From Chloroflexota bacterium (GTDB lineage Bacteria; Chloroflexota; Anaerolineae; UBA1429), in contig DAIPBO010000015.1 in the NCBI GenBank assembly GCA_036774405.1, positions 4,497 to 68,496 of the forward strand: DNA of 64,000 nt, written 5' to 3'. Under the pieces are notes generated by a model, which had not been told where the DNA came from, did not search any database, and saw only the letters and a program-made list of their open reading frames with translations. Positions 8,079-64,000 of this stretch are shown here, one piece after another. Both the position numbers and the translations under genes were made by a program. How positions within the stretch are numbered: position 1 is the first letter of the stretch; each line of letters opens with the position of its first letter.

Positions 8079-8113
8079 CCTAGTTTGTGACATTTGGAAA
8101 GGTGGTGACCCGC

Positions 8114-15239: not shown

Positions 15240-15265
15240 ACGCCGGCATGGACGGAGGGCCTGAC

Positions 15266-26087: not shown

Positions 26088-26089
26088 CT

Positions 26090-27268: not shown

Positions 27269-27282
27269 GAGAGGGAGAGGAT

Positions 27283-27873
27283 ATGGAGCTAGGTCGAATC
27301 GTACACTCCAACTCGCATGTCGACTATGTCTGTCAGATCGCGCAGCGGACTGAGACCCCGCAGACGCCAGAGCCGACGCACTATGCCTTTGGCACGTTGG
27401 TGGGGCTCGAAGGCGCCGCGGGCACGTTAGTGGGGCTGATCTATGACACACGGTTGGTCAATCCCGAGTTTGGCAACCTGGGCCCGCGCCTCTCGCCCCG
27501 CGAAGAGCTGCTCTCCTTCTCGCCCGACTATTTGGCCGAGACGGCCACGTTGGTGGGCATCTTGGCCATTGGCCTGTTGAGGCCAGGCGGCGAGAGTCAA
27601 CAGGGCGTGCCCACCATTGCCGTTGAGGTGGGCACGTCGGTGCGCACCCTGTCAGATGGCGAGATCGTCGGCTTTCACCGCCCTGGCGGCCGGCTCCGGG
27701 TGGCCTATCTGCCACAGGTGCTGGCACACGGGCCCCTCGGCCTGGCGTTGGCACAGCGGATGCTGGCGCAGCTCGAGCTGTTGCTGCCCGACGATCGTGG
27801 TCGTCTGCAGGTGCTGGCCTCTACGGTGGGCTGGCGCGCGGCGGTGGGGGGCATCCAGGAGGGGAGGCGATGA
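27283..27873 (+). CDS. Stand-alone HAS-barrel protein
   Basis: LGRIVHSNSHVDYVCQI, FGTLV, VGLIYDTRL, GPRLS, FSPDY..E; located between nurA and herA. Confidence 0.72.
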   Translation: MELGRIVHSNSHVDYVCQIAQRTETPQTPEPTHYAFGTLVGLEGAAGTLVGLIYDTRLVNPEFGNLGPRLSPREELLSFSPDYLAETATLVGILAIGLLRPGGESQQGVPTIAVEVGTSVRTLSDGEIVGFHRPGGRLRVAYLPQVLAHGPLGLALAQRMLAQLELLLPDDRGRLQVLASTVGWRAAVGGIQEGRR

Positions 27874-42094: not shown

Positions 42095-42406
42095 GGGGGC
42101 GCAACGCGATCCTAATCGTGCGCAGGGGTTTGGGGCCTCTTCGCCGATCGCCACAGGAGAGCAGCTATTGGTGTTGTTGGGCACCAGCTTGCACTCTGTG
42201 ACGGCCGGGGAAGGGGCCCTTGTCGTCTGTTAGCAGGGTTGGGCTCGCGTTCTGGTATTGATTTGGCGTGTTGTGCTTGGAATGCCTTTGTGGGAGCTTG
42301 GCGCTGCCGTCTCATCGACGGCCTCATGCTGTTTGTGGCTGAGGCTTCTAGTGAGACGGCAGCGCCCCACAGGGCGCAAGGGGAGGGAGAGAGAGGTGCA
42401 GAGGAC

Positions 42407-45400
42407 ATGAGTAAGCGTTCTTGGCGGAACCTGCTGCAGATCTTGTTGGTCATGCTGCTGGCCACGTCGAATCTGGCGTTCTCTATGCCAGCATCGGCAG
42501 ATGGCCCTAGCGATCTGCGGGCAGAAGCGGCTCTCGTAAGCGGTGGACTTGACGATACGACAGTGGCCGCAGGCACTACCGTGCGAATCGGTCTGGCCGC
42601 GTGGAACGATTCGCCAGACGGTCTCGATGCCGAGGGGGATGCAGAAGATGTGGGTATGTACCTATATCTACCCGAAGGCTTTGAGATCGTACCCGGGCCA
42701 GACTCGCCCACCAACGGGGCGGTGATGACCCAGATAGGCCCTCGCGCCTATTACTTTGCGTTAGGCGACATTGTGGCAGGCGGCTCCTTTGGTTTTGGTG
42801 TCGCTGTCGCCATTGCGCCCGACGCCGTCGCCGGGTCTGACGGGCATCTGCCTGTGGCCCTTACGGCGGCGGTCGACCCCGGTGGCCCCACGTTCTATGA
42901 CGTCAACACCGAGAACAACACCTACGCGGTAAACCTCACCGTGGTCGAGGACGCGCAGGATGTTTGGGTCGACCAGACCAGGCTCCCTGGGTCGGCGTTC
43001 GCTGGCGCCCCTAACGATTACGTACTGGGCGTGTTCAACGGCGGCCCGTCAGCAGCGCGCCAAGTAACCCTTGTTGACGAGTTGTCGCCCGATGAGACCT
43101 ACGTGTCGGTGGACTTTACCAAGGGCAGTGGTGAGTGCTCCTACCTGGCCAGCAGCCATACGCTCTTGTGCCGTCTGGGGACGGTGATGCCCAGCACCTT
43201 TATCGAGGGTGCTGAGGCCTATGACCCGACGGTGGAGATGGTCCTCCATACAGAGGTCAAGAGCAGTACAGCCGATGTAGCGACTATCACCAACAGCGCT
43301 ACGGTGGGCTGGTTGCACTGGGTGGGCCCCGGGCCGGATGACGAAGAGACCTTCGCGGCCGAGCCCGATCTGTTCGACACCTGGGTCGATCGTGACGTAT
43401 CGCTGCAGGTGAGCAAGGTCAGCAGCCCCAACCCGCTGACGGCCGGCGAGCGGCTCACCTATGACATTACCGTGACCAACAATGGCCCCAGTGACGCCGA
43501 CGGTGTAGAGCTCACCGAGGCACTGCCCTCGGGCGTCAGCTTTGTGGCCGCCTCTTTGGGCAGCGATTGGGCTGAGACGGTCCCCGGCAGCGCCTATGCA
43601 CTGACTCGGCCTCTTGCGGCCGGCGAGACGGTAGGGTTGAGTCTGGAGGCTGACACCACGGCGAACCTGTATGGCCAGCTATCGCCGGGCACCCCTGTGA
43701 TCACCAACAGCGTCTGCGTCACCTCGAACGAGATGATGAACGACAGCCAGGTGTGTGCCGATCAGGACACCCTGGTGACTGAGGCGGCAGACCTGGCCGT
43801 GTTCAAGGTCAGCAGCTCTGGCGGCCAGCTCTATGCAGGCCAGGAGCTCGAGTACACCATCCACGTCTACAACCGCGGCCCTTCGGCAGCTCGCGGAGTA
43901 AAGGTGGTTGACGATATCATCTCGGCGGCCGGTGTTTCGGTCCTCGACTGGGCTGTTGACGCGCCCACACCGAGCACGGTGACAGAGATCGGTGGCCAAC
44001 TCGAGATCGCCATCAACCGCATACCGGCCGGCCAACGCGCCGAGATCACTGTGCTGATCGGCGCCGAAGAGGCGACTAGCGTGACCAACGTGGTCAACGC
44101 CAGTGCGAACACCCCCGATCCGGATGTGACCAACAACACTGCCAGCACGACAGACGAGTTTGTCGCCTCCGCCGATCTTGGCATCTACACGGACGCTGAC
44201 CCGGTTATCATCACAGCAGGCAGTGTGGGGCGTTTCCTGATCGAGGTCTATAACGATGGCCCCTCCACGGCCAACAATGTCGTTGTCAAGAACAGGCTTC
44301 CGCAGGGAGTCGAGCTGCTATCGGTCGACGCCGGAGGGGGCCTGGGCTTGATAGGCGGCAATGCGCTGGGCGATGCGAACGACCCGGTGGTGGTTCCTCT
44401 GGGCGACCTCGCACCAGGCGAATATGCCTGGATTGACATCCTTGTGATGGTCGATCCGAACTATACCGACGCGCTGACCTACGACTTTTTGGGCTATGTC
44501 ATCAACAGCGCTGAGGTGTCGTCTGACACGTTCGACCCATTCAACGGCAACAATGCCGATTCTGCCCACGCGCTGGTCTTGGGCGAGGCCGACCTCGCGC
44601 TTACCAAGGGGCAGACGCCAGACCCGGTGGTTGCTGGCGAGATGGTCGAGTGGCCTATGGTGATCACCAACTATGGCCCCTCGGTGGCGCGCGACGTGCA
44701 GTTGCTCGACGCCCTCCCCGGCGAACTCGGCTTTGAAGAGGTCGTCTTGGTCTCGGGCGAGGCGCAGTGTCAATACAGCCACACGACCGGGCTGCTGGGC
44801 TGCGACCTGGGCGATATGTACCCGGGCGACAGCGTCAGCCTGATCGCACGCACGCACGTCAAGCCGCATGTCAGCGATGGCACAGTCATCGAGAACACGG
44901 CTACCGTGGGCTCGCGGCTGCTGCTCGAGCCGATCGACGGTTACCCTGGCACGCGCGATGACAATTTCGACAACAACGTGTCCAGCGATAGCGGCACCGT
45001 CCGCGTCCAATCCTGGGTCAACGTTACGATCGAGGCCACGCCAGACCCGGTGTTGGCGGGCCAAAAGATCCACTATCTCGTCACAGTGACCAATGATGGT
45101 CCTTCTATCGCCAGCGGCGCTGCAGTGAACGTCGGCCTGCCGGCGATGGTGGACTACTCTGCGTACTCTGGCCCCGAGTGGACGCTGGATGCGCCGCTCA
45201 GCTGGAGCACCGAGCGCATCCTCTTCCCCGGCGAGTCCTCGTCGTTCATGGTCGAGGGCATCGTGCGCTCAGAGACAACTGCCTGGGACTGGGAGGCCCC
45301 CGAGCCCGCAGTCGATCCGGCTGGCTCTGAGACGCTAGCGGTGGGAGCCTGCGCCCAGTGGAACGAGGCGCCGCTGTTTGAGGACCCCGACCTGGGCCTG

Positions 45401-48400
45401 GTGCCTTCCGAAAGTTGCACCAGCCTGGAGACCTTTGCCGACGAAGAGGCTGATCTCTACATCGTCAAAGTCGGCAGCCCCGAAGGCCAGGTGCCGGCGG
45501 GTGGCCAGATTGAGTACATCGTCTATGTGTACAACCTGGGCCCGTCTGATGCCCGCAACGTCGTAGTGACCGATAACGTGCTCGGCGCCGACTATCTCGA
45601 GACTGTTGATCTTCAAGTGATCGAGGGCGGCGGCTCGGTTAACAGCATCGCTGGGGTCGCCATTCAGGGCGAGACGGTGGTGCTGCCTGCTGGCCAGCGC
45701 TTTGGCTACAGGGTGGTGCTGAGCAGCGACGAAGCGGTCGACCTGCAGAACATTGCTCACGTCTCCTCAGACACGCCCGACCCAGACTGGTCGAACAATG
45801 ATGCCGCCACGTTCCACGAGTTCGTGGCGATGGCCGACTTGAGCATCACCAAGTCTCAAGCGGGCGGTATGATCCATATGGGTGAGGAGATCGTCTGGAA
45901 TATCGAGGTCTACAACTCCGGACCATCGGTTGCCCAGGATGTGGTGATCTATGACGCGCTGCCGGCTGGCGTCTCGCCCGCTCCGGGCCCCTGGTCTCCC
46001 GGCACGCCCGGCGATCCCAATGACCCCATGACCATCCCATTGGGCAATCTGAACCCCGGTGAGACTCGCGCGGTTCAAGTTGTCGTTCGCGTCGCTCCGG
46101 ACCTGGCCACGGGTGGAGGCTATATCGGCGTGCCCAGTATAGCCGAGATCTGGAACACCGCGAGGGTTGACAGCGTAACGGTTGACCCCAAAACGGCCAA
46201 CAACACGTCCAGCGCTTGGACCCCCTTGATGTCGGTGGCTGATCTGAGAGCGCAGATTCAGCCCAATCCAATAAATGCCGTCGCAGGCGAGTCCTTCGAG
46301 TTCCTGCTGAGCGTCGACAACGCAGGGCCCAGTGCGGCTATCGACAGCACAGTTTACCTTAACTGGGCGCCGTTAGCGCAAGTCGAGAGCATCACGCCCG
46401 TCGAGGGCACTTGGGACTGCGCGTCTACGCTCACTTCCGGCATGATGCAGTGCAACCTCGGCGATCTTGGTCCGCAGCAGGCATCTGTAGCGCTTGTGCG
46501 CATGCGTCTGCAGGCCGACCTACCTGATGGTATGTGGCTGCCAGTTCAGGCGTACGTCACGTCTTCCTGGTCAGCAGATTTCAACGGCTATAACAACATG
46601 GCGTCGGCGATAGTCTCTGTCTCTCGCATGACCAACCTCACGGTGACCCGTGAGACGTGGCCAGAGCCAGTGGTTGCTGGTGACAAGCTCTATCACAGCA
46701 TCACGGTGACCAATGAAGGCCCGTCGATGTCGTCAGGCATCGAGGTCACGCACAACTGGGATATGGCCAATCTGGAGCTGCTCGGTCAGACCGGCAGCGA
46801 GTGGGTGATGACCGAGCCAGACACCTGGCTTCTCAACCGCTGGCTGATGCCTGGCGATACCAGCACCTTTGTGCTCGAGTTCCGCGTCAAGCCTTCGACG
46901 GCCAATGTCACGGGCTCGTACGTGCTAAACAGCAGCACCTGCGTGACGGACGATGTGATGCCTGGCGAGGTATGCCCGCCCATCGAGCAGACGTTTGTCG
47001 ACGAGCAGGCCGATCTCAGGCTGATCAAGGTCGGCACGCCCAACCAGACGGTGCGAGCCGGCGAAGAGCTTCAGTATGCGATCTTTGTCTACAACCTGGG
47101 GCTGTCTGACGCGCGCAACGTGGTGGTGACGGACGAGATCCTCTCAAATGGCCAGTTCAGCGATCCGGTGTTCGCGAGCCAGGGCTATGACTGCACCGTG
47201 GACGGCGGCGAGATCGTCTGCGACGTGGCGGTGCACCCTGCCGGGCAGCGTGAAACGATCTGGATCACCGTTACAGCCAACGAAGAGGTCGCCGTCAACA
47301 ACCTGTCTTGCGTCGCCAGTGATACGCCAGACCCTGACGCAGACAACAACTGCGCCATGGTGCTGACGTCGGTCGTGCCTGTGGCCGATCTATCGGTTCA
47401 CAAGACGCCGCTAGATCAGGGCCCCTGGATCGCGGGTACAGAAGCTGGCTTCCGTATCGAAGTGACCAATAACGGACCCTCTACGGCCGAGAACGTGGTC
47501 ATCGAAGACTTTTTGCCGGCGTATGTTACCGTGCTCGAGACGGTGCCGGCGGGCAACTATACCGCCGGTGTTCCGGGCGACCCGAACGCGCCGATGGTCA
47601 TCCCTGTGGGCAGTCTGGAGGCTGGCCAGACCTGGGAGGTCGAGGTCTACCTGCAGATTGACGCAGGCTATCCGTTCGATCCAGCGCTGAATGGCGAGTT
47701 CCTGACCAATGACGTCAGAGTGTCGAGCGACGTGTTCGATCCCGATATCAGCAGCAACCACAACTCGGCGGTGCTGTTGGTCGAGCCGTTCTCACAGTTG
47801 ATCGTGTCCAAGAGCGCAACGCCAGGGGAGGCCATGGCCGGCGAGCCGCTCGAGTATGCCATCACTGTGATGAACGCTGGGCCTTCAGTTGCCCACGGTG
47901 TGACGGTTATCGACTCCTTCGATGACGAGATGCTCACCTTTGTTGACTATGAGGTCGGCCTGGGTGAGGGGCGCTGCTTCTATGATGCCACACATCAAGA
48001 GGTGCTCTGCGACCTCGGTGACATCGAGCCTAACACCGTGCGCGAGATCTACCTCACCTTCCTGGTGAGCCCTGATGCACCCGATGGGTATCTGCTCTGG
48101 AACCAGGCAGATCTGATGACAGTGTCCAGCGTAGAGTTCGAGGGCGCCAACGTTGAGGTGCCGGTCATCAATAACGCTGATCTGCAGGTGACCAAGTCGG
48201 CCGACAAGATGCAAGTCTATGCCGGCCAGCAGCTCACCTACACAATCGACGTGGTGAACCATGGCCCAACCAGTGCGGTGGGCGTGCAGGTTGTCGATAC
48301 GTTGCCCGGAGGGGTGACGTATGTGAACGACAACCTCGGCAGCTGCAGTCTTGAGGATGCCGAACTCACCTGCGATCTGGGCGACCTGCCCGTGGGGCAG

Positions 48401-50302
48401 AGTGTGAGCTTTGACGTGCTGGTGACGGTGAACGCCGACACCATCGAGCCCATCATCAACGTGGCCTCGGTTTCGAGCGACACGGTTGATCTGGACAGCG
48501 ACAACAACGAATCTGCCGTCACTACACCGGTCGATGGCTTTGCAGACCTGCGAGCCATCAAGTTCGGTAAACCCGAGGCGTTTGTGCGGGCTGGTGAGGA
48601 GCTGACCTACACGATCCTGGTCGACAACCTGGGCACGGGCGTGGCTCATGGCGTCAAGCTGGTCGATAGCCTCGATTCTAACGGGGTGTTCGAGCTGCAG
48701 AGCGTCGAGTCTAGCCTGCCGGTGGTTGAGGATTTGGCGTCTCTGCAGCAGCAGTTCACCAAGAGCGGCAGCTTTACGCTGACGCTTGCTGATGATCTGC
48801 CCATCACCTTGGGGCAAGCGCCGTGGCGCATCACCACGATCGTCATGGCTAATGACGATCAGACCATCAACAACTGCGTGGTGGTCAGCGGCGACGACTT
48901 TGATCCCGATGTGGAGAACAACCGCGCCTGCGCCGAGCACGACATCACCAATGTCGCTGATCTGGGCGTAGACAAGACCGCGGTCGGCGAATCGCAGATC
49001 ATGGGAGAGCCCGCTGGCACCGTCGAGCTGACCGAAGGCCGTGTGACGGCTGGCCAAGCCCTGTTCTACTCGATTACGGTGACCAATAGCGGGCCGTCAA
49101 TCGCAGAGAACGTGGTGGTGCATGATGATCTGCCGGTCGGCGTCGAGTTCGTCGAGGCGGATCCGGCCGCTGATACGAGCCAACTGCCTGGCAAGTTGAT
49201 CTGGAATCTCGGCTCGCTCGCCAGCGGTGATGTGGTCGAGATCGAGGTCAAGGTGTTGGTGCCCGCGCACGTGCCGCAAAGCACCGTGTTGCGGAACACC
49301 GCGGCAGTGATGAGCGACATCTTTGACCAGAACAACAGCAACAACACCGCCTCGGCAGAGGCCATCGTCGAAGCGTATGCGGACATCGTTCTCACCAAGT
49401 GGAGCGAGCCCGAGACGGCGATCTTTGGGAACGACATCGAGTACCACATCGTCGTCGAGAACCTGGGCCCCAGCGATGCTGGTCTCGTCAGGATCAGCGA
49501 TCTGCTGCCCGAGGGTATCGATGGCGAAAAGTGGGAGTACACCACCGATGCTGGCCTCACCTTCACCAGGGGCTATGGCAACGTCAATGTCACGCTTGAC
49601 ATGCCCGTGGGCCAGGTGGTCCAGATGGGCGTCACAGGTATTGTGAATACCTACGCGACGTTCACCAACACGGCGTGCGCCAGCTCCAGAGAGGTGGTCG
49701 ACCCTGTGGCAGATAACAACTGCGACCAGGTCGAGAACCGCCAGACGCTGGTGTTCTATCCCATCGAGATGCGCGGCACAACCAACACCTCGCATCGCGC
49801 CGACATCACCGTCTCCAAGATCGTGGCCACGCCAAGCTATGTCGAGGTCACGGTCACCAACGTCGGCAACCGGCCGTTGCTCGAGCCGTTCTGGGTGGAC
49901 TTTTACGTCAGCCCCGATCCGGTCCCGACGGCTGTGAACCAGATCTGGGAGAACCTGTGCGCGCCTGGCATGGGCTGGGCGTGGCGCGTGACGGGCGATG
50001 ACGGCCTGCCGCTAGACCCCGGCGAAAGCCTGGTGCTGGTGGTTGACGACACCGACAGCGATCTCTTCCCGCTGGCGCAGGGCCTGACGGTCTGGGCGCA
50101 GGCTGACTCGTGGAATCCCAACTCTGAATGGGGTATGGTCCTCGAGCAGGACGAGATCCAGGGTCTGCCATACAACAACATCCGCTGGTCGACGGTCGGG
50201 CGGGTCTGGGGCTATGACGGGATCGCTCGCACGAGCGACGACGTCATCCGCTCTGGCGCCCTCTCGAGCGCCGCAGCCGATGGGTTGCCTCCGCGCCCCT
50301 AG
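42407..50302 (+). CDS. Giant secreted DUF11-repeat surface protein (2,631 aa) with C-terminal CARDB-like domain
   Basis: Sec signal MSKRSWRNLLQILLVMLLATSNLAFSMPASA; about 18 units of DL...K...AG..L.Y.I.V.N.GPS.A..V.D.L...NN.A; strongly acidic. Confidence 0.9.
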   Translation: MSKRSWRNLLQILLVMLLATSNLAFSMPASADGPSDLRAEAALVSGGLDDTTVAAGTTVRIGLAAWNDSPDGLDAEGDAEDVGMYLYLPEGFEIVPGPDSPTNGAVMTQIGPRAYYFALGDIVAGGSFGFGVAVAIAPDAVAGSDGHLPVALTAAVDPGGPTFYDVNTENNTYAVNLTVVEDAQDVWVDQTRLPGSAFAGAPNDYVLGVFNGGPSAARQVTLVDELSPDETYVSVDFTKGSGECSYLASSHTLLCRLGTVMPSTFIEGAEAYDPTVEMVLHTEVKSSTADVATITNSATVGWLHWVGPGPDDEETFAAEPDLFDTWVDRDVSLQVSKVSSPNPLTAGERLTYDITVTNNGPSDADGVELTEALPSGVSFVAASLGSDWAETVPGSAYALTRPLAAGETVGLSLEADTTANLYGQLSPGTPVITNSVCVTSNEMMNDSQVCADQDTLVTEAADLAVFKVSSSGGQLYAGQELEYTIHVYNRGPSAARGVKVVDDIISAAGVSVLDWAVDAPTPSTVTEIGGQLEIAINRIPAGQRAEITVLIGAEEATSVTNVVNASANTPDPDVTNNTASTTDEFVASADLGIYTDADPVIITAGSVGRFLIEVYNDGPSTANNVVVKNRLPQGVELLSVDAGGGLGLIGGNALGDANDPVVVPLGDLAPGEYAWIDILVMVDPNYTDALTYDFLGYVINSAEVSSDTFDPFNGNNADSAHALVLGEADLALTKGQTPDPVVAGEMVEWPMVITNYGPSVARDVQLLDALPGELGFEEVVLVSGEAQCQYSHTTGLLGCDLGDMYPGDSVSLIARTHVKPHVSDGTVIENTATVGSRLLLEPIDGYPGTRDDNFDNNVSSDSGTVRVQSWVNVTIEATPDPVLAGQKIHYLVTVTNDGPSIASGAAVNVGLPAMVDYSAYSGPEWTLDAPLSWSTERILFPGESSSFMVEGIVRSETTAWDWEAPEPAVDPAGSETLAVGACAQWNEAPLFEDPDLGLVPSESCTSLETFADEEADLYIVKVGSPEGQVPAGGQIEYIVYVYNLGPSDARNVVVTDNVLGADYLETVDLQVIEGGGSVNSIAGVAIQGETVVLPAGQRFGYRVVLSSDEAVDLQNIAHVSSDTPDPDWSNNDAATFHEFVAMADLSITKSQAGGMIHMGEEIVWNIEVYNSGPSVAQDVVIYDALPAGVSPAPGPWSPGTPGDPNDPMTIPLGNLNPGETRAVQVVVRVAPDLATGGGYIGVPSIAEIWNTARVDSVTVDPKTANNTSSAWTPLMSVADLRAQIQPNPINAVAGESFEFLLSVDNAGPSAAIDSTVYLNWAPLAQVESITPVEGTWDCASTLTSGMMQCNLGDLGPQQASVALVRMRLQADLPDGMWLPVQAYVTSSWSADFNGYNNMASAIVSVSRMTNLTVTRETWPEPVVAGDKLYHSITVTNEGPSMSSGIEVTHNWDMANLELLGQTGSEWVMTEPDTWLLNRWLMPGDTSTFVLEFRVKPSTANVTGSYVLNSSTCVTDDVMPGEVCPPIEQTFVDEQADLRLIKVGTPNQTVRAGEELQYAIFVYNLGLSDARNVVVTDEILSNGQFSDPVFASQGYDCTVDGGEIVCDVAVHPAGQRETIWITVTANEEVAVNNLSCVASDTPDPDADNNCAMVLTSVVPVADLSVHKTPLDQGPWIAGTEAGFRIEVTNNGPSTAENVVIEDFLPAYVTVLETVPAGNYTAGVPGDPNAPMVIPVGSLEAGQTWEVEVYLQIDAGYPFDPALNGEFLTNDVRVSSDVFDPDISSNHNSAVLLVEPFSQLIVSKSATPGEAMAGEPLEYAITVMNAGPSVAHGVTVIDSFDDEMLTFVDYEVGLGEGRCFYDATHQEVLCDLGDIEPNTVREIYLTFLVSPDAPDGYLLWNQADLMTVSSVEFEGANVEVPVINNADLQVTKSADKMQVYAGQQLTYTIDVVNHGPTSAVGVQVVDTLPGGVTYVNDNLGSCSLEDAELTCDLGDLPVGQSVSFDVLVTVNADTIEPIINVASVSSDTVDLDSDNNESAVTTPVDGFADLRAIKFGKPEAFVRAGEELTYTILVDNLGTGVAHGVKLVDSLDSNGVFELQSVESSLPVVEDLASLQQQFTKSGSFTLTLADDLPITLGQAPWRITTIVMANDDQTINNCVVVSGDDFDPDVENNRACAEHDITNVADLGVDKTAVGESQIMGEPAGTVELTEGRVTAGQALFYSITVTNSGPSIAENVVVHDDLPVGVEFVEADPAADTSQLPGKLIWNLGSLASGDVVEIEVKVLVPAHVPQSTVLRNTAAVMSDIFDQNNSNNTASAEAIVEAYADIVLTKWSEPETAIFGNDIEYHIVVENLGPSDAGLVRISDLLPEGIDGEKWEYTTDAGLTFTRGYGNVNVTLDMPVGQVVQMGVTGIVNTYATFTNTACASSREVVDPVADNNCDQVENRQTLVFYPIEMRGTTNTSHRADITVSKIVATPSYVEVTVTNVGNRPLLEPFWVDFYVSPDPVPTAVNQIWENLCAPGMGWAWRVTGDDGLPLDPGESLVLVVDDTDSDLFPLAQGLTVWAQADSWNPNSEWGMVLEQDEIQGLPYNNIRWSTVGRVWGYDGIARTSDDVIRSGALSSAAADGLPPRP

Positions 50303-55780: not shown

Positions 55781-56773
55781 CTAGATGGCAATAGGCTCGC
55801 TCAACATCGCTTTGAGCAAGCGCACGCTGTTGAGCACATCGCCGTGGTCGACCATCTCTGATGGCGTGTGGATGTGCCGACAGGGGATCGACAGGCACCC
55901 AGAGGGGATGCCCGCTCGCGTGGTCTGGATCACCATCGCATCGGTAGTGCCTGCATCGAGCACCTCGCGCTGGTATGGAATGCCCGCCGCCTCGGCAGAG
56001 CGAATCATCCAGTCTTTGACGCCCTCGTGAGCGATCATGCCCGAGTCCTTGATCTTGACGGCGGGGCCGCCACCCAACTCAACGGCCATAAAGGCCGCTT
56101 TGGGGGTATCGCCAGTGTCTGTCACGTCGATGGCCACGGCCACATCGGGATCGATGCCAAACGCAGCGGTCATGGCGCCACGCGGGCCCACCTCTTCTTG
56201 CGTCGTGAACACGGCATAGACATCATTGGGCGTGTCGCCGAGCTCGATCAGCGTTTGGGCCGCCACAGCACAGGCGATGCGGTCGTCCATCGCCTTGGCG
56301 ACGAGACGTTTGCCCAGATCCACCATAGGGCGGTCAAAACAGCAGATGTCGCCCACCTCGACGGGAGCATCGGCTGGCGATGTGGCTCCCAGGTCGATGA
56401 ACAGCTCTTCCATCTTGGGCAGTTCGCGCTTCTGCAGCCAGTACTCCCAGCCCACCACGCCCGTGGCGCCATTGGCAAAGCGCACACGGTTGCCCAGCAA
56501 CGTCAGCGGAGAGACGCCGCCCACGGTCTGGAAGCGGGCAAAGCCCTTGCGGTCTATATGGCTGACCACGAGGCCGATCTCATCCATGTGCGCCGCCAGC
56601 ATCACCCGTAGGCCGCCGCCAGAGCCCTTTTTGTAGGCGATGAGGTTGCCCATGTTATCGCTGCGCACCTCATCCACAAAAGGGCGCACCAGATCGGCCA
56701 GCAGGGCGCTCACGACGCTTTCGCGCCCCGAAGGGCCAAAGGCCTCGACCAAAGTCTTGATCATGTCTTTCAT
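55781..56773 (-). CDS. M42 (TET-like) metallo-aminopeptidase, paralog 3
   Basis: AAHMDE, MDDR, QEEVG, AIDVT, HIHTP. Confidence 0.92.
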   Translation of the reverse strand: MKDMIKTLVEAFGPSGRESVVSALLADLVRPFVDEVRSDNMGNLIAYKKGSGGGLRVMLAAHMDEIGLVVSHIDRKGFARFQTVGGVSPLTLLGNRVRFANGATGVVGWEYWLQKRELPKMEELFIDLGATSPADAPVEVGDICCFDRPMVDLGKRLVAKAMDDRIACAVAAQTLIELGDTPNDVYAVFTTQEEVGPRGAMTAAFGIDPDVAVAIDVTDTGDTPKAAFMAVELGGGPAVKIKDSGMIAHEGVKDWMIRSAEAAGIPYQREVLDAGTTDAMVIQTTRAGIPSGCLSIPCRHIHTPSEMVDHGDVLNSVRLLKAMLSEPIAI

Positions 56774-57813
56774 GACAGGCTCCCTTGAATGCGCTGCAGG
56801 GCGGCCGCCATCAGGCGGTGGGTATTCTCCAGATCGTTCAGGCTGAGGATGCTCACGGGGGCATGAATGTTACGGCAGGGCACCGCCACCGTCACTGCGG
56901 GCACGCCTTCGCGCGATAGGTGGATAGCGCCTGCGTCGGTGCCTCCCGCCGCCGCTTTCTTGAACTGGTAGGGAATGCCCTCTTCGCGGGCGGTCTCTAC
57001 CAGCAGATCAACAAGACGACGATCGGCGATGAAACTGCGATCCATAAAGGTGATGGCTGGGCCCTTACCCACCTCAGTGACGTGGCTGGTGTCCTCGTCT
57101 CCCTTGGGCAGGTCATCGCAGATGGTCCCTTCGAGCACAAACGCGAGATCGGGCTCAATGCCATAGGCCGCCACGCGGGCGCCGCGCAGGCCCACCTCTT
57201 CTTGGGCAGTGAACACGGCATACAGGTCGATGGCATAGTCGTGCTGCAATAGCTCGACGAGCACCGCACAGCCGGCACGGTCGTCGAGCGCCTTGCCCTT
57301 GACGCAGCGCAACGCGCCTGGCTCTAGCGCCTCGTAGGTGGTGCGAAAGGTGATGGGATCGCCCAGCGAGACGAGCCTTTCGGCTGCGCTCTGACTGGTG
57401 GCGCCGATATCGATGGCCGCACGCGAAAGATCGGGCGCTGCCTCGCGCTCCTTCCGTGCGATGAGGTGAATGGGACGGTAGCCGATAACGCCAGGCACAG
57501 CGGCCTGGCCGATGAGCACCTGCTTGGATAGCAGGATGCGGTCGTCGATGCCGCCCACTTTGTCAAAGCGAACGGTGCCGTCCTTGTTGACGCCCGTGAC
57601 GATCAGGCCGATCTCGTCCATATGAGCAGCCACCATCACCTTGAGCGGCCGACCCTCGACCGGCCGCCTTGCCCTGCGCAGGCAGATGAGGTTGCCCAGG
57701 GTATCGACGCGCTGTTCATCTACCAGGCCATCGATGGCCGCTTCGATGATCTCGCGCACCTCACGCTCACAGCCCGAAATGCCACGGGCGTCTGAAAGCT
57801 GTTGTAGCAGCAT
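56770..57813 (-). CDS. M42 (TET-like) metallo-aminopeptidase, paralog 2
   Basis: AAHMDE, LDDR, QEEVG, VLEGT, NIHAP. Confidence 0.92.
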   Translation of the reverse strand: MLLQQLSDARGISGCEREVREIIEAAIDGLVDEQRVDTLGNLICLRRARRPVEGRPLKVMVAAHMDEIGLIVTGVNKDGTVRFDKVGGIDDRILLSKQVLIGQAAVPGVIGYRPIHLIARKEREAAPDLSRAAIDIGATSQSAAERLVSLGDPITFRTTYEALEPGALRCVKGKALDDRAGCAVLVELLQHDYAIDLYAVFTAQEEVGLRGARVAAYGIEPDLAFVLEGTICDDLPKGDEDTSHVTEVGKGPAITFMDRSFIADRRLVDLLVETAREEGIPYQFKKAAAGGTDAGAIHLSREGVPAVTVAVPCRNIHAPVSILSLNDLENTHRLMAAALQRIQGSLS

Positions 57814-57822
57814 GCTCTCCTC

Positions 57823-58878
57823 CTACAGCATCGGGGCAGAGACGTCAGCGCTGTCGAGCGCGACGATGGCCCTCGCCATCAGCCGGCCAGTGCGCTGGAT
57901 GTCTCGCAGGCACACCGTCTCGACCGACGTGTGCATATAGCGCAGCGGCACCGACAGCAGCCCTGTGGGTACGCCTTCGCGGGCCACCTGGATCGCCCAG
58001 GCGTCGGTGCCCGTCTGGCCGGCAGCCACCTCAACCTGGTATTTGATCTCATGTTCTTTGGCCGTCTGTACGAGCAGCTCGTAGATGGATGGATGGATGT
58101 TGGGCCCCATGGCAATGGCCGGTCCACCATCCATCTCGACTGACTCATCATCAGACACCCCAACCTGGGCGCCAAAGCCCACATCCACGGCGATGGCCGC
58201 GTCTGGCGCTGTGTGATAGGCGCTGACGATGGCGCCGCGCAGGCCCAGTTCCTCTTGGGTGGTGGCCACCGCATACACGTCCCAACCGTGCCGCAGGCGA
58301 CTCAGCTCTTGCAGGCACACCGTCAGTGTGGCCACGCCGGCGCGGTCGTCCATGGCCTTGCCCGAGAGATAGCCCTCGGCCAGCGCGATGGTCTCACGAC
58401 GCATCGACACGAGGTCGCCCACCTGCACCAGATGCGGCACCTCCTCGGCAGTGAGCCCCGTGTCGATAAAGAGCTTGTCGGTCGGCACGGCAGTGCGGCG
58501 CTCTTGCTCGCCGAGCACGTGGGGCGGGCGGCTCGAGATAACGCCGATCAGCTCGCGCCGGCCGTGGACCGTCACCTCCTGACCCAGCACGGTGCGCAGG
58601 TCTACCCCGCCTACGCGCGTAAAGCGCAAAAAGCCGCCTTCATAGCCGGTCACCATCAGGCCGATCTCGTCCATGTGGGCCGCCAGCATGATAGCGCGCC
58701 TGGGAGTGCCCTCCGCAGGCTCGCCGCGCTTGAGCGCCATCAGGTTGCCCAGGGCATCGGTCTCAAAAGCGTCGACGAGCGGATCCCAGGCCTTTTGCAC
58801 CAGAGAGCGCACATCGCCCTCATAGCCCGATAGGCCGGTGGCCATGGTGAGTTCTTTGAGATGCGCAACAAGGTCCAT
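57823..58878 (-). CDS. M42 (TET-like) metallo-aminopeptidase, paralog 1
   Basis: AAHMDE, MDDR, QEELG, AVDVG, YMHTS. Confidence 0.92.
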   Translation of the reverse strand: MDLVAHLKELTMATGLSGYEGDVRSLVQKAWDPLVDAFETDALGNLMALKRGEPAEGTPRRAIMLAAHMDEIGLMVTGYEGGFLRFTRVGGVDLRTVLGQEVTVHGRRELIGVISSRPPHVLGEQERRTAVPTDKLFIDTGLTAEEVPHLVQVGDLVSMRRETIALAEGYLSGKAMDDRAGVATLTVCLQELSRLRHGWDVYAVATTQEELGLRGAIVSAYHTAPDAAIAVDVGFGAQVGVSDDESVEMDGGPAIAMGPNIHPSIYELLVQTAKEHEIKYQVEVAAGQTGTDAWAIQVAREGVPTGLLSVPLRYMHTSVETVCLRDIQRTGRLMARAIVALDSADVSAPML

Positions 58879-58922
58879 AGAGCTTCCTTTCGGACGCGCG
58901 AGAGGTGCGGTTAGCGCTGCGC

Positions 58923-59234
58923 TCAAGGCGTCGCCGTGGGCGTCAGGGTGGGGAAGAGCGTCGGTGTATTGGTGGGCGCGGCGCTGGGCGCCACGGTGGG
59001 TGGCTCGCTGGTGGGCTCGACTGGTGCCTCTGGCTCTTCTGTAGGGGGAGCCACCAGGCTGGCGACTGTGGGTGTGGGCATGTCGGCCGGAGACATCATG
59101 GTTTTGCGCACATACAGGCTCAAGGCGCCCAGCGCATACAACAGCACCACGATGAACGAACCGGCTATCCAGGCGGCACGTTTGGCGCGGGCCACGTCAG
59201 AGCGAGCGACGAGACGATCCCACCATGTGGTCAT
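58923..59234 (-). CDS. Small membrane protein with Pro/Thr-rich tail
   Basis: One TM helix (AAWIAGSFIVVLLYALGALSLY) followed by PTPT...PTLTPTATP; start estimated. Confidence 0.55.
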   Translation of the reverse strand: MTTWWDRLVARSDVARAKRAAWIAGSFIVVLLYALGALSLYVRKTMMSPADMPTPTVASLVAPPTEEPEAPVEPTSEPPTVAPSAAPTNTPTLFPTLTPTATP

Positions 59235-59278: not shown

Positions 59279-59590
59279 CTAGACGGGGCGTCCATCGAAC
59301 GAACGCAGCAGCGAGGTGAGTGCTTTGCGGGCGTTGAGTAGATAGTTGAGGTTGCTCCACGAATCACGAACCTGATCGGGCACTTGATTGTCAGACCACC
59401 CCATGGCCGAGACCATCTGGTCTTCGGTGCCCAGATAGTCGTAGAGGATATCGATCTGCTCGTCGAGCAGCGAGAGATTGTAGAGCAGCAACGCATACAT
59501 GGCACGGGGCGATACGGTGTGATCGCCACGCGAACCTCCGGCGGCCGCCAACAGGCTAGCCACTTCAGCGTCGCGGATCAAACGTGCCAT
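59279..59590 (-). CDS. Hypothetical 103-aa protein
   Basis: RBS GGAGG 6 nt upstream, own consensus promoter, helical composition. Confidence 0.7.
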   Translation of the reverse strand: MARLIRDAEVASLLAAAGGSRGDHTVSPRAMYALLLYNLSLLDEQIDILYDYLGTEDQMVSAMGWSDNQVPDQVRDSWSNLNYLLNARKALTSLLRSFDGRPV

Positions 59591-59617: not shown

Positions 59618-59646
59618 ATGCTATCACCAAGGAAGGGCGATGTCAA
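59618..59646 (-). promoter_or_regulatory. Sigma70-type promoter of the 103-aa ORF
   Basis: TTGACA, 17 bp spacer, TAGCAT on the minus strand. Confidence 0.7.
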
Positions 59647-59665: not shown

Positions 59666-60829
59666 TCAGGGCACCTGGCCGCCGACCTGCTCGATATTCC
59701 GCACGTGCTCCTCGTATGTCTCGGCGAACACGTGCGAGCCGTCGCCCTGCGCCACAAAAAAACGATAGGGCGTGTCTACCGGCTGCAGCGCAGCCTCGAT
59801 GGCCCCCAGCCCTGGGTTACAGATGGGCGAAGGCGGCAGCCCTGGGTTCAGATAGGTGTTGTACGGTGAGGCGATCGACGAGTACTCTTCAATCGTCAAC
59901 GGGCGCCACCAGTCGTCGGCCTCGGCATCGTAGCCGCGCGCGTATTGCACGGTGGGGTCGGCCTGCAGATACATGCCGTCCTCGAGGCGTTTGGCGTACA
60001 CGCCGGCGATGAGTGGTTGCTCGTCTGCTACGACTGCTTCGCGCTCGACGATACTGGCGAGTGTGACCACCTCATACACGCTGCGCCCCGTGGCGTTGGC
60101 ACGCGCGAGCATGTCGGCTGGCATGCGCCCCTGCCAGGTGCTCACCATGATCTCGACAATACGCGCTGCGCTGGCATTGAGCGGGAACTGATAAGTGTCG
60201 GGAAAGAGAAACCCCTCTATGCTGGCGGGGCTGCCTGCAGGGCGGTCATCGAGCAGCGGGTTACCGCTCACGCCGCTGCGCACCGCCGCCAAAAAGGCCT
60301 CGGCTTCGACGACGTCGCTCTCGTCGAGCAGGGCGGCGATCTGCTCGGCTCGCAGACCCTCGGGCACCGTCACGGTCACAGCGGGGAGCCTGCCATGCTG
60401 CAGATTGCGTACCATCTGCTCCATGGTCATGTCGGGCCGCAGCTCGAACACGCCTGCCTGAATATCACTATCCGCGCCCCAGTATTGCACCATGCGCCGG
60501 AATAGCTCAGCGTTGCTCACCAAACCCTCGCGCTCCAGACGCTGCGCGATGCCAGTTAACGTCTCGCCCGAACGAATGACAAAGGTGCGCTCGCGGCTAT
60601 CGTCGGGGTTGGCGGGAGCGTTCATCTGGTCGCCATACATCTGGCGAAGATACAGCCCGATGGCCCAGCGCTCAACCCTGCTGGCGGTGATCTCAAAGGG
60701 CGTATCGCGTTTGGTCTCGTCGGCAGCTTGCCAGGTGTACCAGAGCCCTGCCGTAACGATCAGGCCGACGGCCAGCAACGTCAGGGCAGCTGTGAGCACC
60801 CGCAGCGTCCAGCGCAAGGCGTTGTTCAT
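59666..60829 (-). CDS. mltG: Endolytic transglycosylase MltG
   Basis: N-terminal TM; TVPEG, EGFLFPDTY, LASIVEREA (catalytic Glu), LQADPTV, YNTY...GLPP.PI.NPG. Confidence 0.94.
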   Translation of the reverse strand: MNNALRWTLRVLTAALTLLAVGLIVTAGLWYTWQAADETKRDTPFEITASRVERWAIGLYLRQMYGDQMNAPANPDDSRERTFVIRSGETLTGIAQRLEREGLVSNAELFRRMVQYWGADSDIQAGVFELRPDMTMEQMVRNLQHGRLPAVTVTVPEGLRAEQIAALLDESDVVEAEAFLAAVRSGVSGNPLLDDRPAGSPASIEGFLFPDTYQFPLNASAARIVEIMVSTWQGRMPADMLARANATGRSVYEVVTLASIVEREAVVADEQPLIAGVYAKRLEDGMYLQADPTVQYARGYDAEADDWWRPLTIEEYSSIASPYNTYLNPGLPPSPICNPGLGAIEAALQPVDTPYRFFVAQGDGSHVFAETYEEHVRNIEQVGGQVP

Positions 60830-61251
60830 GTATTCCTGCTCATCTGATGGTCGATATAGTCCTGCAGCAACACTGCCGCAGCCACTGCGTCTACCTGCTG
60901 GGCGCGCTTCTGCGGCGACAGCCCCTCGGCAGAGAGGATCTCGTTGGCACGTCGGGTGGTCTCTCGTTCATCATGAAAGATGATGGGCACCGCCACATGC
61001 TGCTCCAAGCCGCGCACAAAGGCGCGCGTTGAGGCGACCTGTTTGCCCTCGCTGCCGTCGGGCAGCAACGGCAGCCCCACCACGATGGCTCTGATGCCTT
61101 GCTGGCTAACCAGTGCGGCAATGCGCACAAAGCCGCCTGGCCCGCGGCGACGCGGAATCATCTCCAGCGGGCGCGCCAGCTGTTCCAGCTCGTCAGAGAT
61201 GGCGACGCCGGTACGCTCATCGCCCACGTCGAGTGCCAGTAGCCGCGTCAT
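60826..61251 (-). CDS. ruvX: RuvX/YqgF pre-16S rRNA nuclease
   Basis: LALDVG.ERTGVAISD, VVGLP, DERETT, DAVAAAVLLQ. Confidence 0.94.
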   Translation of the reverse strand: MTRLLALDVGDERTGVAISDELEQLARPLEMIPRRRGPGGFVRIAALVSQQGIRAIVVGLPLLPDGSEGKQVASTRAFVRGLEQHVAVPIIFHDERETTRRANEILSAEGLSPQKRAQQVDAVAAAVLLQDYIDHQMSRNT

Positions 61252-62741
61252 GGGGCACCGGCGTCGACTGCTACGCTGATACGCACGGGCAGCACCGGCA
61301 GGCGCTCCCAACGCGGCGGCAACACTGTGACCTTGGGCGCAGCGGCCAACTCGAAACTGTCGCTCAACCAGGCCGTGGCTGTGTCGACCTCTTGGCCGCG
61401 CACCCCGTGGCGCACGCTGTCCACCTCGATCACCTGTGCCAGGCTGCCTCGTGCCATCACGTCAAAGGTGATCTCGCCGCCCTGCACAGAGACCTGCTCC
61501 GAGGGTTGGAGCGCAAGCGTGTCTTCCACCAGACGCAGATCGGCTTTGCCCTGCGCCTCTAGCATGCGCGTGGCCAGTAACTCTAGGTCGCGTGAACGGA
61601 TGGCCTCGCCGCGCGCCACCACCTTCATGGTCATTGAGACGATCTCGCTGCGCTGGTCGAGCACCTGATCGTGCTTGTATGACATGACCTGCACGTCGAG
61701 CGAGGCCTGCACGATCGACTCTCCCTCCTCAAGCTCGTCGGCCAGTTGCTGTCTGGCGAGCTCAGTCAGGCGCGCCAACGCCTCATCATAGAGCGCGTTC
61801 TGATCCTCGGCGCTCACCCTCGCGATCTCTCGCATCGCCCCACCGCTGGTGGCGCTGTCGTTGATCACCTCAAGAGAGGAAGCCAACCCCCCCTCGATAA
61901 TGTTGATGGTCAGGGCGCGCACATTGCCCACAGGGCCAGCGTCGGCCGCCATGATGGGCACCCTCACGGTGGCGTTGTACTGCGCCGGCAACGAGGCATC
62001 GTTCACCGTGTAAAAGCGGGCCGTTTGCCCCGATCCGGTGCGCACATACGTGCCCTTGGGGATGCTCACTGCCTGGTCCGAGCGGTTGGCAAAAACGACA
62101 TCGCCCGCGGCAAAGGTGTCGGGCTCGGTGGCACGGCCAGTGGTGGCCTGCTGCGCTACATCCTCGACGATCACCTGTACCATACGGGCGGGCAGCAGGG
62201 CCTGTCCATAGTCGATCTCGGTGCGCAACGGGCTGGCCGTCACCGTGAACCTCACCTCGGCAGCCTGGGTGATGGGCTGCAGGGTGATCTCAGCACTGGG
62301 CAACACCACGGCAATGGTGGCCGCAATGATGCCCAGCAGCAAAAGCGCGCCGAGCAAACCCGCTGCAAACGCGGCCAGCCCCAGGTGGCGCGGGCGCCTG
62401 AACTGTGCAGCCGAGAGCGTGCGCACCTCGGCGTGGCTGTCTTTGCCCTCGACGCGCTGCACGCTCCGCTGCAGCGCCGGCGGCAACATGATGTACGGCG
62501 GCAGGCCGGCCTCGCGGGCCAGTTGGCGCACCTGGCTGCGCAGGCTCACCAGCCGCAGGTCGACGCCGACCTCGCTGGCCGCGTGGCCCAGGCGTCGCAG
62601 GTTGAGCAGGTTCTGGGCCCAGCGAGTTCTCCAGGGCAGCACCAGCCAAACCTGGTCGCCCGCCCTGTGGCGCCGCACCAGGCTGGCGGCAACGCTGACT
62701 GTCACATGACGCTGCAAGCGATAGACGTGTATCGACGCCAA
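61248..62741 (-). CDS. Single-pass membrane protein with extracytoplasmic baseplate J/gp47-like domain
   Basis: TTG start after GGAGG; soluble N-domain; TM helix; A.G.VVFAN.....IPKGT.V....F.T...V.A...G..GNV....I...V.N..A.SGG pattern typical of Baseplate_J. Confidence 0.75.
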   Translation of the reverse strand: MASIHVYRLQRHVTVSVAASLVRRHRAGDQVWLVLPWRTRWAQNLLNLRRLGHAASEVGVDLRLVSLRSQVRQLAREAGLPPYIMLPPALQRSVQRVEGKDSHAEVRTLSAAQFRRPRHLGLAAFAAGLLGALLLLGIIAATIAVVLPSAEITLQPITQAAEVRFTVTASPLRTEIDYGQALLPARMVQVIVEDVAQQATTGRATEPDTFAAGDVVFANRSDQAVSIPKGTYVRTGSGQTARFYTVNDASLPAQYNATVRVPIMAADAGPVGNVRALTINIIEGGLASSLEVINDSATSGGAMREIARVSAEDQNALYDEALARLTELARQQLADELEEGESIVQASLDVQVMSYKHDQVLDQRSEIVSMTMKVVARGEAIRSRDLELLATRMLEAQGKADLRLVEDTLALQPSEQVSVQGGEITFDVMARGSLAQVIEVDSVRHGVRGQEVDTATAWLSDSFELAAAPKVTVLPPRWERLPVLPVRISVAVDAGAP

Positions 62742-62767
62742 CGATCCTCCCGTTACAGGCCAACGCC

Positions 62768-64000
62768 TTACGATGCGCTGCGCCAGTCGATGATGTCGAG
62801 CAACGCTCGGTCGAGCTCGCCGCCGGGGCCGTACTGTCGGGCCACATAGTGGGCCAACGACCAGGATGGCAGCAGCGCTGGCCCATAGGTCTGCCGTGTC
62901 CAGTTCATCACCCGATCGTTCCTGTAATTCTCGAGCGTGGCGAGGCGTGGACAGCGCGCCAGGCCCAGTGCTTGCTCCCAATAGGGCGTTTCGAGGGCGA
63001 GCAGGGCCTCTGACGCCTTATGAGAGAGGTCCAGACCATAGTGCTGGTCTGGCAACCCAGGGCCACGCTCCTCTGGAGGCACGAGCTCGCACAGCCCGTC
63101 GAGCCATGCCTGCAGGGCGCGCCAATAGCGGCGCGCCAGGCGGTCGAGCCCTTCACGATCGAGCCTGCCAGCACGATATTCGTGCATGAGCTGTAGACGC
63201 TCCTCGCGCTGCAGCGGCAGGCCCTCGAGCGTCGCGTCGATGATGCCCATGGCGCCCTCATCGCTGCGGGCCGACCAGACGATGCGCCCCTGATGCAGGC
63301 GATCGAGATACGCCTCATTCTCATCGAGCAGCACCAGCAGAGCGTCGCCCAGCGGAGCGGCCAGCGCCACGCGCTGCGGTACAATGCTCGCTAACGAAAT
63401 CTGCAGCTTGGCCGACAGCGCCTCGAGGGTGCGCACCCATTCGATGGGCGCCGCAAAGAAACACAGGTCGGCCTCTAGCAGCGTGCCCTGCAGGCTGACG
63501 GGGTCGAGCACCTGGTGGCCGTCGACGCGCACCTGTGCTGGTACGCCGCAGGTGATCACATAGCGCTCGAGCTGTTTCTGCTGATCCAGACGGTCGAGCG
63601 CTTCTCGATACCCACGCCGCAAGAGGTCGCGCACTTCGTCGAGCTTGATCGGCTGCGTGGGGCGGTTGCGCTCACGTCGCGGCCTTACGGCGGCGCTCAA
63701 GGTGATGCTGTCGGGCACGCTCATGGTGACGGTGTCGGCCACCACCTTGCGCTGATAGTTGCCGTGCTCGGTCATATCCTCGGCCTGCGTCAGCGCCAGG
63801 TCTGCCCCAATAAACCATCGCTCGGGATCAGGGAACTGCGCGCGGCCCAACCCGTGTACGGGAGACACGCCCACGCCCAGCACATCGGCAATGCCGTGCG
63901 ATAGCTTCACCACGGCTCCGCGCACATGGTCACGCTCCCATGTGAGCAAGCTATGAAAATGAGGCGAGCTCTCGGATGTGGGAGCGCGGCGCCGCTGGAG
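62768..64000 (-). CDS. FtsA-like actin-fold protein, degenerate (5' end possibly beyond window)
   Basis: VLGVG......G......D; V..R..P...I...E; VDGH.V.DP..L.G..LE...; overall FtsA-like layout but no DIG or DxGG ATP motifs. The frame stays open to the window edge. Confidence 0.62.
   Translation of the reverse strand, partial: LQRRRAPTSESSPHFHSLLTWERDHVRGAVVKLSHGIADVLGVGVSPVHGLGRAQFPDPERWFIGADLALTQAEDMTEHGNYQRKVVADTVTMSVPDSITLSAAVRPRRERNRPTQPIKLDEVRDLLRRGYREALDRLDQQKQLERYVITCGVPAQVRVDGHQVLDPVSLQGTLLEADLCFFAAPIEWVRTLEALSAKLQISLASIVPQRVALAAPLGDALLVLLDENEAYLDRLHQGRIVWSARSDEGAMGIIDATLEGLPLQREERLQLMHEYRAGRLDREGLDRLARRYWRALQAWLDGLCELVPPEERGPGLPDQHYGLDLSHKASEALLALETPYWEQALGLARCPRLATLENYRNDRVMNWTRQTYGPALLPSWSLAHYVARQYGPGGELDRALLDIIDWRSAS

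Follow-up and report, generated by a model that had tools for sequence, protein, structure and literature searches.

Why does a Chloroflexota bacterium carry, in the midst of a housekeeping operon, a gene for a relative of the division protein FtsA followed by a gene for a membrane-anchored relative of phage baseplate proteins, and what might the two products do together? The question is raised by one end of a 64,000-nucleotide (nt) stretch of DNA from a member of Anaerolineae (contig DAIPBO010000015.1 of assembly GCA_036774405.1; "the window" hereafter means this whole stretch), where four co-directional genes, all on the minus strand, encode an FtsA-like protein, a baseplate-J-like protein (J-like protein), RuvX and MltG. 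An earlier inspection of the letters and their translations (the sequence-only reading) had seen in these genes a candidate envelope machine of an undescribed kind. The evidence assembled here leans towards the view that the FtsA-like and J-like proteins form a membrane-spanning unit, composed of a scaffold and an outer wedge, which acts at the cell wall and is encoded in a housekeeping operon.

The gene pair and its conserved neighbourhood

The genes concerned are arranged as follows (window coordinates):

62768..>64000, minus strand: gene of the FtsA-like protein, named for its predicted FtsA/PilM fold; the 5' end lies outside the window, and the full product has 414 amino acids (aa)
62742..62767, minus strand: spacer of 26 nt between the stop of the FtsA-like gene and the start of the J-like gene
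61248..62741, minus strand: J-like gene, with a TTG start and a Shine-Dalgarno-like GGGAGGA 3 nt upstream
60826..61251, minus strand: ruvX (yqgF), identified by Pfam RuvX and TIGR00250
59666..60829, minus strand: mltG (yceG), an endolytic transglycosylase gene, identified by Pfam YceG and TIGR00247

Direct reading of the sequence bore out the layout described earlier, with four co-directional genes, a gap of 26 nt and two ATGA overlaps, one shared by the J-like stop and the ruvX start (61251..61248) and the other by the ruvX stop and the mltG start (60829..60826). The FtsA-like gene, which had been placed within 61248-64000, is present there but runs off the window: its frame is still open at the last base, its homologues have 414 aa, and the near-identical contig L004 places its ATG 12 nt past position 64000, with 13 nt separating it from the end of alaS. 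The spacings from alaS to mltG are, in order, 13 nt, 26 nt, ATGA and ATGA, which amounts to tight coupling. Curated models were passed by both RuvX (PF03652, 133 bits; TIGR00250, 87.1 bits, cut-off 43.25) and MltG (PF02618, 284.6 bits; TIGR00247, 209.4 bits, cut-off 103.4), the latter having an N-terminal transmembrane segment at residues 7-33. Upstream, past position 64000, the order tig-clpP-clpX-alaS was found in two relatives (83% protein identity) as well as in three contigs from metagenomes that are near-identical to this one, and mltG is followed on its 3' side by two small open reading frames (ORFs), three M42 peptidases and then housekeeping genes. The genes alaS, FtsA-like, J-like, ruvX and mltG are a housekeeping operon with a conserved two-gene module inside.

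The conservation of the pairing was examined in 85 loci, 14 from GTDB species genomes and 71 from a metagenome scan, and the counts given here are based on hidden Markov models and cover the loci seeded by the FtsA-like gene; two diverse alignments lacked a sufficiently conserved stretch, and the locus scans were run on two others, one of them narrower. The J-like gene lies directly 3' of the FtsA-like gene in 64 of 64 scorable loci, so that the pairing assumed in the sequence-only reading is indeed conserved; ruvX follows the J-like gene in 41/43, mltG follows ruvX in 35/37, and alaS lies 5' of the FtsA-like gene in 56/66. All 14 GTDB loci (Anaerolineae or Chloroflexota metagenome-assembled genomes) show the order clpX-alaS-FtsA-like-J-like, with ruvX and mltG next wherever the contig reaches that far. 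Carriers of the pair were found in Anaerolineae, Limnocylindria (Ca. Limnocylindrales, locus L025) and Ca. Dormibacteria (L102), the last two with the same arrangement, and in the unplaced loci L024 and L100. The named carriers belong to Chloroflexota classes and Ca. Dormibacteria; the Patescibacteria mentioned in the sequence-only reading are not among them. The pair persists down to about 20% identity. Its members appear in public records as "hypothetical protein", "baseplate J/gp47 family protein", "Baseplate protein J-like domain-containing protein" or "cell division ATPase FtsA", and literature searches found no published description of the pair or its neighbourhood; apparently, the pair is a conserved, undescribed module.

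Part of this gene order has a wider distribution. In Bacillus subtilis, alaS adjoins yrzL, and Firmicutes have a small cytoplasmic protein of the YrzL/IreB/ReoM family at the position of the pair. The B. subtilis order alaS-yrzL-yrrK(ruvX)-yrzB-yrrL(mltG) has the same alaS...ruvX...mltG backbone as the Chloroflexota locus but a small non-homologous protein where Chloroflexota carry the FtsA-like/J-like pair. The genes yrzL, yrrK and yrrL have neighbouring locus tags (BSU27400, BSU27390 and BSU27370; PMC3814617). The alaS-ruvX-mltG series is an older housekeeping backbone than the pair. The coupling to ruvX and mltG stressed in the sequence-only reading is the usual order, but it belongs to this older backbone, and the pair also occurs without both genes.

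The age of the backbone lends some colour to a different account, in which the two proteins act jointly outside the cell wall, in signalling or quality control tied to alaS/ruvX, and the neighbourhood of mltG is historical. The alaS-ruvX-mltG order predates the pair and is found without it in Firmicutes, the junction between the J-like gene and ruvX is the tightest and most conserved one (median 12 nt), and kinase, TIR and caspase domains occur as fusions in paralogues of the family. An extracytoplasmic domain of 350 residues is nevertheless hard to square with a purely cytoplasmic RNA function, and the pair also exists where alaS or ruvX is not nearby (L024, L100), which leaves a role outside the wall unlikely, though deserving of some weight.

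Predicted folds and nucleotide motifs

The folds named in the sequence-only reading were checked by structure search, which returned FtsA and PilM for one protein and baseplate J and wedge proteins for the other. The FtsA-like product is predicted to be a cytoplasmic protein with an FtsA/PilM-type actin fold. Its AlphaFold2 model, built from a 12-sequence alignment, has a predicted local distance difference test score (pLDDT) of 89 and a predicted template-modelling score of 0.87, and the order of secondary-structure elements fits the FtsA/PilM-type actin fold (the ASKHA fold, of acetate and sugar kinases, Hsc70 and actin), a type with subdomain 1C where others have 1B. In a Foldseek search against the PDB, the top 29 matches were all FtsA or PilM (E-values from 2e-19 to 6e-14), among them FtsA (7q6i, 3wt0, 7q6g, 1e4g and 4a2a) and PilM (5eoy and 2ych); 7q6i, 7q6g, 1e4g, 5eoy and 2ych had E-values of 2e-19 to 3e-14 and template-modelling scores (TM-scores) of 0.5-0.69, the FtsA structures gave E-values of 2e-19 to 1e-17 and TM-scores up to 0.69, and EutJ and GspL/EpsL ranked far below. 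A profile search of PDB sequences also placed FtsA first (E 0.0015), via the N-terminal hairpin and helix. Curated sequence models failed on the window protein (TIGR01174, 11.1 bits against a cut-off of 175.85; no Pfam match, including PF14450 and PilM_2), and it is the predicted fold, together with orthologues, that supports the assignment; orthologues with intact motifs pass PF14450.

An exhaustive profile search yielded 847 cluster representatives of the FtsA-like family at E <= 1e-3, with orthologues traceable to about 20% identity. FtsA has an amphipathic helix at its C-terminus for membrane targeting and binds the C-terminal peptide of FtsZ; in the window protein, the C-terminal segment ELDRALLDIIDW has the highest hydrophobic moment of the tail, yet is acidic. 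Some members of the wider family have N-terminal fusions to a caspase, TIR or Ser/Thr protein kinase domain (P0081, P0105 and P0139; L101, 6001..8301), the kinase fusion at L101 having no J-like neighbour; these members look like signalling or conflict-system paralogues.

Structure and profile searches both match FtsA best, and the pair could be regarded as the true divisome component of this lineage, the FtsA-like protein being the tether of FtsZ and the J-like protein the substitute for FtsQ/DivIB or FtsN. FtsA and the FtsA-like protein have the same overall fold, with an aligned signature of an N-terminal beta-hairpin and helix; orthologues pass PF14450, and one Joint Genome Institute (JGI) record bears the name "cell division ATPase FtsA". 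However, the FtsA-like protein of the window has neither the phosphate-1, phosphate-2 nor adenosine motif and, at 11 bits against the TIGR01174 cut-off of 176, fails the curated FtsA model, and its gene neither adjoins ftsZ nor lies in the division and cell wall (dcw) cluster but stands between alaS and the gene of its obligate neighbour, the J-like membrane protein, in which Pfam finds no POTRA or FtsQ domain. Chloroflexota have moreover been reported with canonical ftsA-ftsZ at the dcw locus (PMC10608941), which makes the FtsA-like protein probably a paralogue. A divisome role for the pair is accordingly judged rather unlikely.

The other close structural relative suggests that the pair, like PilM-PilN, is the platform of an apparatus for type IV pili, competence or secretion, and PilM-PilN-like logic had also been invoked in the sequence-only reading. 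The layout is shared, an FtsA-type actin-fold gene being directly upstream of a gene for a bitopic protein with a cytoplasmic N-terminus; PilM structures are strong matches, orthologues give weak PilM_2 matches, a prepilin peptidase gene (Peptidase_A24) directly follows mltG in L102, and L100 has a weak T2SSF_N neighbour. In PilN, PilM binds to a short conserved peptide at the N-terminus, and the periplasmic part is a small ferredoxin-like domain. The J-like protein has instead a folded cytoplasmic domain of 98 residues and a wedge-like outer part of 350 residues, with neither a PilN domain nor a short N-terminal PilM-binding peptide, so that the earlier comparison stands for the PilM fold but not for the mode of attachment. 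In addition, no pilin, PilB/C/T, PilO or secretin gene was found beside the pair, either in the window or among the loci with Pfam gene tables, and a pilus-type platform is improbable. The FtsA-like protein would work in the manner of FtsA and PilM but is not a member of either group, having failed the curated-model, motif and genomic-context tests.

The sequence-only reading had also characterised the FtsA-like protein by the absence of its ATP motifs. This is correct for the window protein, in which, compared with orthologues, phosphate-1 (LDIGTxxxK) is replaced by TWERDHVR, phosphate-2 (DIGGGTTD) by LLDENEAYLD and the adenosine motif (CGGGS) by YGLDLS, but it does not extend to the whole system. 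Most of the distant members retain the canonical ASKHA motifs LDIGTxxxKA, DIGGGTTD and CGGGS and pass Pfam FtsA, and among 74 near-full-length orthologues with the same gene order, 38 are without all three motifs, 35 have all three, and one fails the pattern of the second motif only. Judged from these sequences, loss of all three motifs is clade-specific and no general property of the system. Neighbour-joining places the large degenerate group, including the window protein, in one clade (Anaerolineae), and a second small degenerate lineage branches separately (L066, L094 and L098, with FtsA-like genes at about 6970..8210 and the replacement motifs LHIGEEWVR, VLDTRESTLF and WQMARAWP). The J-like partners in this second lineage keep the type of N-domain found in ATP-motif-bearing lineages, and this suggests that its loss of the motifs was independent of that in the large clade. 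A PWR motif in the J-like N-domain tracks the large degenerate clade and is missing from the second degenerate lineage; it is confounded by phylogeny and was not used as evidence.

The genes of the pair are under purifying selection, with ratios of nonsynonymous to synonymous substitution rates (dN/dS) of 0.13-0.21 against relatives with 69-82% protein identity; these ratios, together with orthologues down to about 20% identity, indicate real genes and rule out chance ORFs. The idea that the motif-less FtsA-like gene is a pseudogene was rejected on the low dN/dS of this gene (0.13-0.20) and the conservation of the replacement residues themselves (TWE[RK][DG]HVR). Given the lost nucleotide motifs and the purifying selection, the FtsA-like protein should be a nucleotide-independent scaffold in this Anaerolineae clade. 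An actin-like fold within an envelope-spanning machine is also known from GspL/EpsL (Foldseek matches 1yf5, 1w97 and 4pht), although the match is far weaker (E 1e-8; TM-score 0.33 by query length and 0.50 by target length). GspL is a single polypeptide with its own transmembrane segment and binds the GspE ATPase; the actin-like domain of GspL/EpsL is not known to bind nucleotide, which offers a precedent for a nucleotide-free scaffold. As motif-bearing and motif-less orthologues occupy one genomic slot, the role of ATP in an FtsA-type scaffold is directly testable in this natural experiment.

The prediction for the J-like product is a bitopic protein of the membrane, with a wedge-type barrel outside, divided as follows:

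62448..62741, minus strand: residues 1-98, N-domain, a cytoplasmic alpha/beta domain (model pLDDT 82-93)
62391..62447, minus strand: residues 99-117, basic, disordered linker
62304..62390, minus strand: residues 118-146, transmembrane region with a single helix (Kyte-Doolittle peak 2.85)
61251..62303, minus strand: residues 147-497, extracytoplasmic domain of about 350 residues
61833..62126, minus strand: residues 206-303, beta-barrel core of the Baseplate_J type

Hydropathy and the AlphaFold2 model both agree with the earlier description of a cytoplasmic N-domain, one transmembrane helix and an external J-like domain. The model (pLDDT 88) gives the order alpha/beta domain (1-98), disordered linker, transmembrane helix (122-146) and outer domain, the last with beta-rich parts, a long helix (311-336) and alpha/beta domains, and 19-residue Kyte-Doolittle windows give one hydrophobic segment (residues 118-154). 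The 22 residues ahead of the transmembrane segment contain five K/R, compared with one in the 24 residues past residue 146, so that the N-terminus should be cytoplasmic.

The description of the protein as baseplate-J-like is supported by Pfam, PHROG and Foldseek, but the sequence similarity is confined to one beta-barrel of about 100 residues. Pfam Baseplate_J (PF04865) matches residues 206-303 with 28.1 bits (gathering score 21.1) over profile positions 18-111 of 255 only; a precomputed PF04865 match exists for 29 of the 31 J-like homologues found, and the PHROG match is phrog_6, "baseplate wedge subunit" (E 2e-11). Baseplate J, gp47 and wedge proteins are the top Foldseek matches of the model in both the PDB and BFVD. 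The barrel superposes at about 3 Å, with 19-24% identity, on proteins of Mu (gp47), phiCD508, A-1(L), Milano and 7-7-1, and alignments of 300-430 columns (E down to 1.6e-9) were obtained with phi812, diffocin, Pa193 and many BFVD "Baseplate J-like" proteins. The barrel also matches Streptomyces GlxA, and on its own is thus not exclusive to phages. Invariant columns of the family include the C-terminal motif PxxWxxxPxLPxR.

The N-domain is an orphan, with no Pfam relative (sub-threshold PelD_GGDEF and STAS only) and only designed repeat proteins in a PDB profile search. It is conserved in ATP-motif-bearing, degenerate and FtsA-less lineages and is where the FtsA-like protein may dock. Linker length ranges across the family from about 20 to about 450 residues. 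The J-like protein of L028 (7417..10218) has 933 aa and a disordered, Pro/Ser/Gln-rich cytoplasmic linker of about 450 residues, and that of the Dormibacteria locus L102 (9280..11085) has a Cys/Ser/Thr-rich segment instead of the barrel region, with the N-domain and C-terminal domains conserved.

The Pfam Baseplate_J and PHROG baseplate wedge matches might also mark the J-like gene as the remnant of a prophage or contractile injection system. The J-like barrel resembles baseplate J, gp47 and T4 gp6 (PF04865) in both sequence (28 bits) and structure (about 3 Å), but the protein differs in being membrane-anchored, in its additional cytoplasmic domain, in its fixed housekeeping locus and in lacking a sheath, a tube and the other partners found in a baseplate. 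A Pfam search of 38 more ORFs, which include most of those with at least 200 aa across 1-59590, returned housekeeping or unrelated genes only and, as the sequence-only reading had noted, no other phage or contractile-injection gene. Sheath, tube, spike, gp25 or gp48/I-like genes were found neither in the scanned ORFs of the 64-kb window, nor in the 10 kb beyond, nor in related loci with gene tables; the flank past position 64000, where such genes had been looked for, holds tig-clpP-clpX-alaS instead. The J-like gene keeps its chromosomal position across classes and phyla and is under purifying selection, G+C is even across the window with no local departure, and when the J-like outer domain was compared by tblastn with 50,697 phage records, no relative emerged (best E 0.2). 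A remnant was therefore rejected, on the tig-clpP-clpX-alaS flank, the empty Pfam sweep, the fixed locus and purifying selection, and is extremely improbable. Of the "domesticated" baseplate fold proposed earlier, the barrel fold stands, whereas a transfer from phage to cell is not established, tblastn having found no phage relative.

A possible trans-envelope complex

From the gene pairing, the topology and the analogy with known systems, the FtsA-like and J-like proteins probably form a trans-envelope complex. The actin-fold FtsA-like protein would dock on the cytoplasmic domain or the linker of the J-like protein, and because the latter is bitopic, such docking would let the pair span the membrane and couple a cytoplasmic scaffold to an extracellular wedge-like domain. 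Docking of actin-like proteins on bitopic partners is known for MreB on RodZ, PilM on PilN and FtsA on FtsN, and GspL unites the two roles in one chain. MreB-RodZ is the closest architectural analogy, because in the cytoplasm the J-like protein has a folded domain and then a basic linker; RodZ and the J-like protein share the plan of a folded cytoplasmic domain, a basic juxtamembrane linker, a transmembrane helix and an outer domain. In RodZ the cytoplasmic domain is a helix-turn-helix, and MreB is without the 1C subdomain; no sequence or fold relation exists between RodZ and the partners described here. The adaptor and its bitopic partner follow a known logic, and what is new is the outer domain, which is unprecedented.

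Outside the membrane, the wedge-like domain, with its long helix, could oligomerise in the manner of baseplate wedges and would act at the cell wall, where it may take part in the processing of peptidoglycan strands with MltG, which is co-transcribed with the pair, or in cell morphogenesis or division. The co-occurrence of MltG, of UppP/BacA (co-transcribed with the pair in L028) and of MurJ (nearby in L021) hints weakly at cell-wall work.

Several observations weigh against a wedge-like unit at the wall. The overall fold match of the J-like protein to baseplate proteins is low (global TM-score about 0.2, root-mean-square deviation above 20 Å), good superposition being obtained for the barrel only, and the outer domains of distant J-like members are without the Pfam Baseplate_J match. 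Neither a peptidoglycan-binding nor a catalytic domain was detected by Pfam in the outer domain. The pair is found without ruvX, mltG or alaS nearby in L024 (GC 0.40) and L100 (GC 0.48), and the tie to mltG may reflect the inherited alaS-ruvX-mltG order only. Furthermore, Nitrolancea hollandica (WP_008474453), a related contig and L021 have a J-like gene between alaS and ruvX but no FtsA-like gene beside it, implying that the FtsA-like partner is encoded elsewhere or is dispensable there. No FtsA-like/J-like fusion protein was found among family members, the long ones carrying kinase, TIR or caspase domains.

A membrane-spanning unit of scaffold and outer wedge acting at the wall nevertheless remains the favoured account of the pair. 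Its more specific form is tentative: a morphogenetic complex of Chloroflexota and Dormibacterota, in which an FtsA-paralogous actin-like protein, a nucleotide-independent pseudo-ATPase in Anaerolineae, would polymerise or serve as a scaffold at the cytoplasmic face and would position an oligomeric wedge-fold assembly that controls glycan-strand processing with MltG. If this is true, it would be the first baseplate wedge protein recruited to core envelope biogenesis outside any injection machine, and the pair would be a fourth combination of actin and bitopic protein, beside FtsA in division, MreB-RodZ in elongation and PilM-PilN in pili, in a large and poorly studied phylum. The cell-envelope architecture of Chloroflexota is still debated. 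A wedge fold working outside a contractile machine would also bear on the direction in which structural proteins were exchanged between phages and cells.

Other genes of the window

The region downstream of mltG contains the following features:

59279..59590, minus strand: small ORF of about 103 aa after mltG
58923..59234, minus strand: second small ORF of about 103 aa, with one transmembrane segment and a Pro/Thr-rich tail
55781..58926: three Peptidase_M42 paralogues, after the small ORFs

The two small ORFs are also kept in close and some distant relatives. Directly past the mltG stop, at 59646..59618, lies a strong promoter-like site (TTGACA-17-TAGCAT, with TG).

Further features were found on the plus strand. 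Far from the cluster, a DUF348-G5-3D protein (2489..4003) is a second cell-wall enzyme of the window, built like the peptidoglycan hydrolases of the RpfB type. Also encoded is a 753-aa eukaryotic-type topoisomerase IB (4888..7149; Topoisom_I_N, E 1e-43; Topoisom_I core, E 1e-59; Topo_C_assoc), a long form that is unusual for a bacterial genome. An RNase_T exonuclease fused to a WYL domain (9023..9979) and a protein with Schlafen AlbA_2 and HATPase_c_4 domains (15248..16639) could be related to defence or regulation. An archaeal-style break-resection operon (22126..29540) encodes an Mre11-like metallophosphatase, Rad50 (949 aa, with a zinc hook), NurA and HerA (DUF87), and a giant protein of 2687 aa with 17 DUF11 repeats, CARDB-like and other Ig-like domains (42239..50302) is probably a surface protein.

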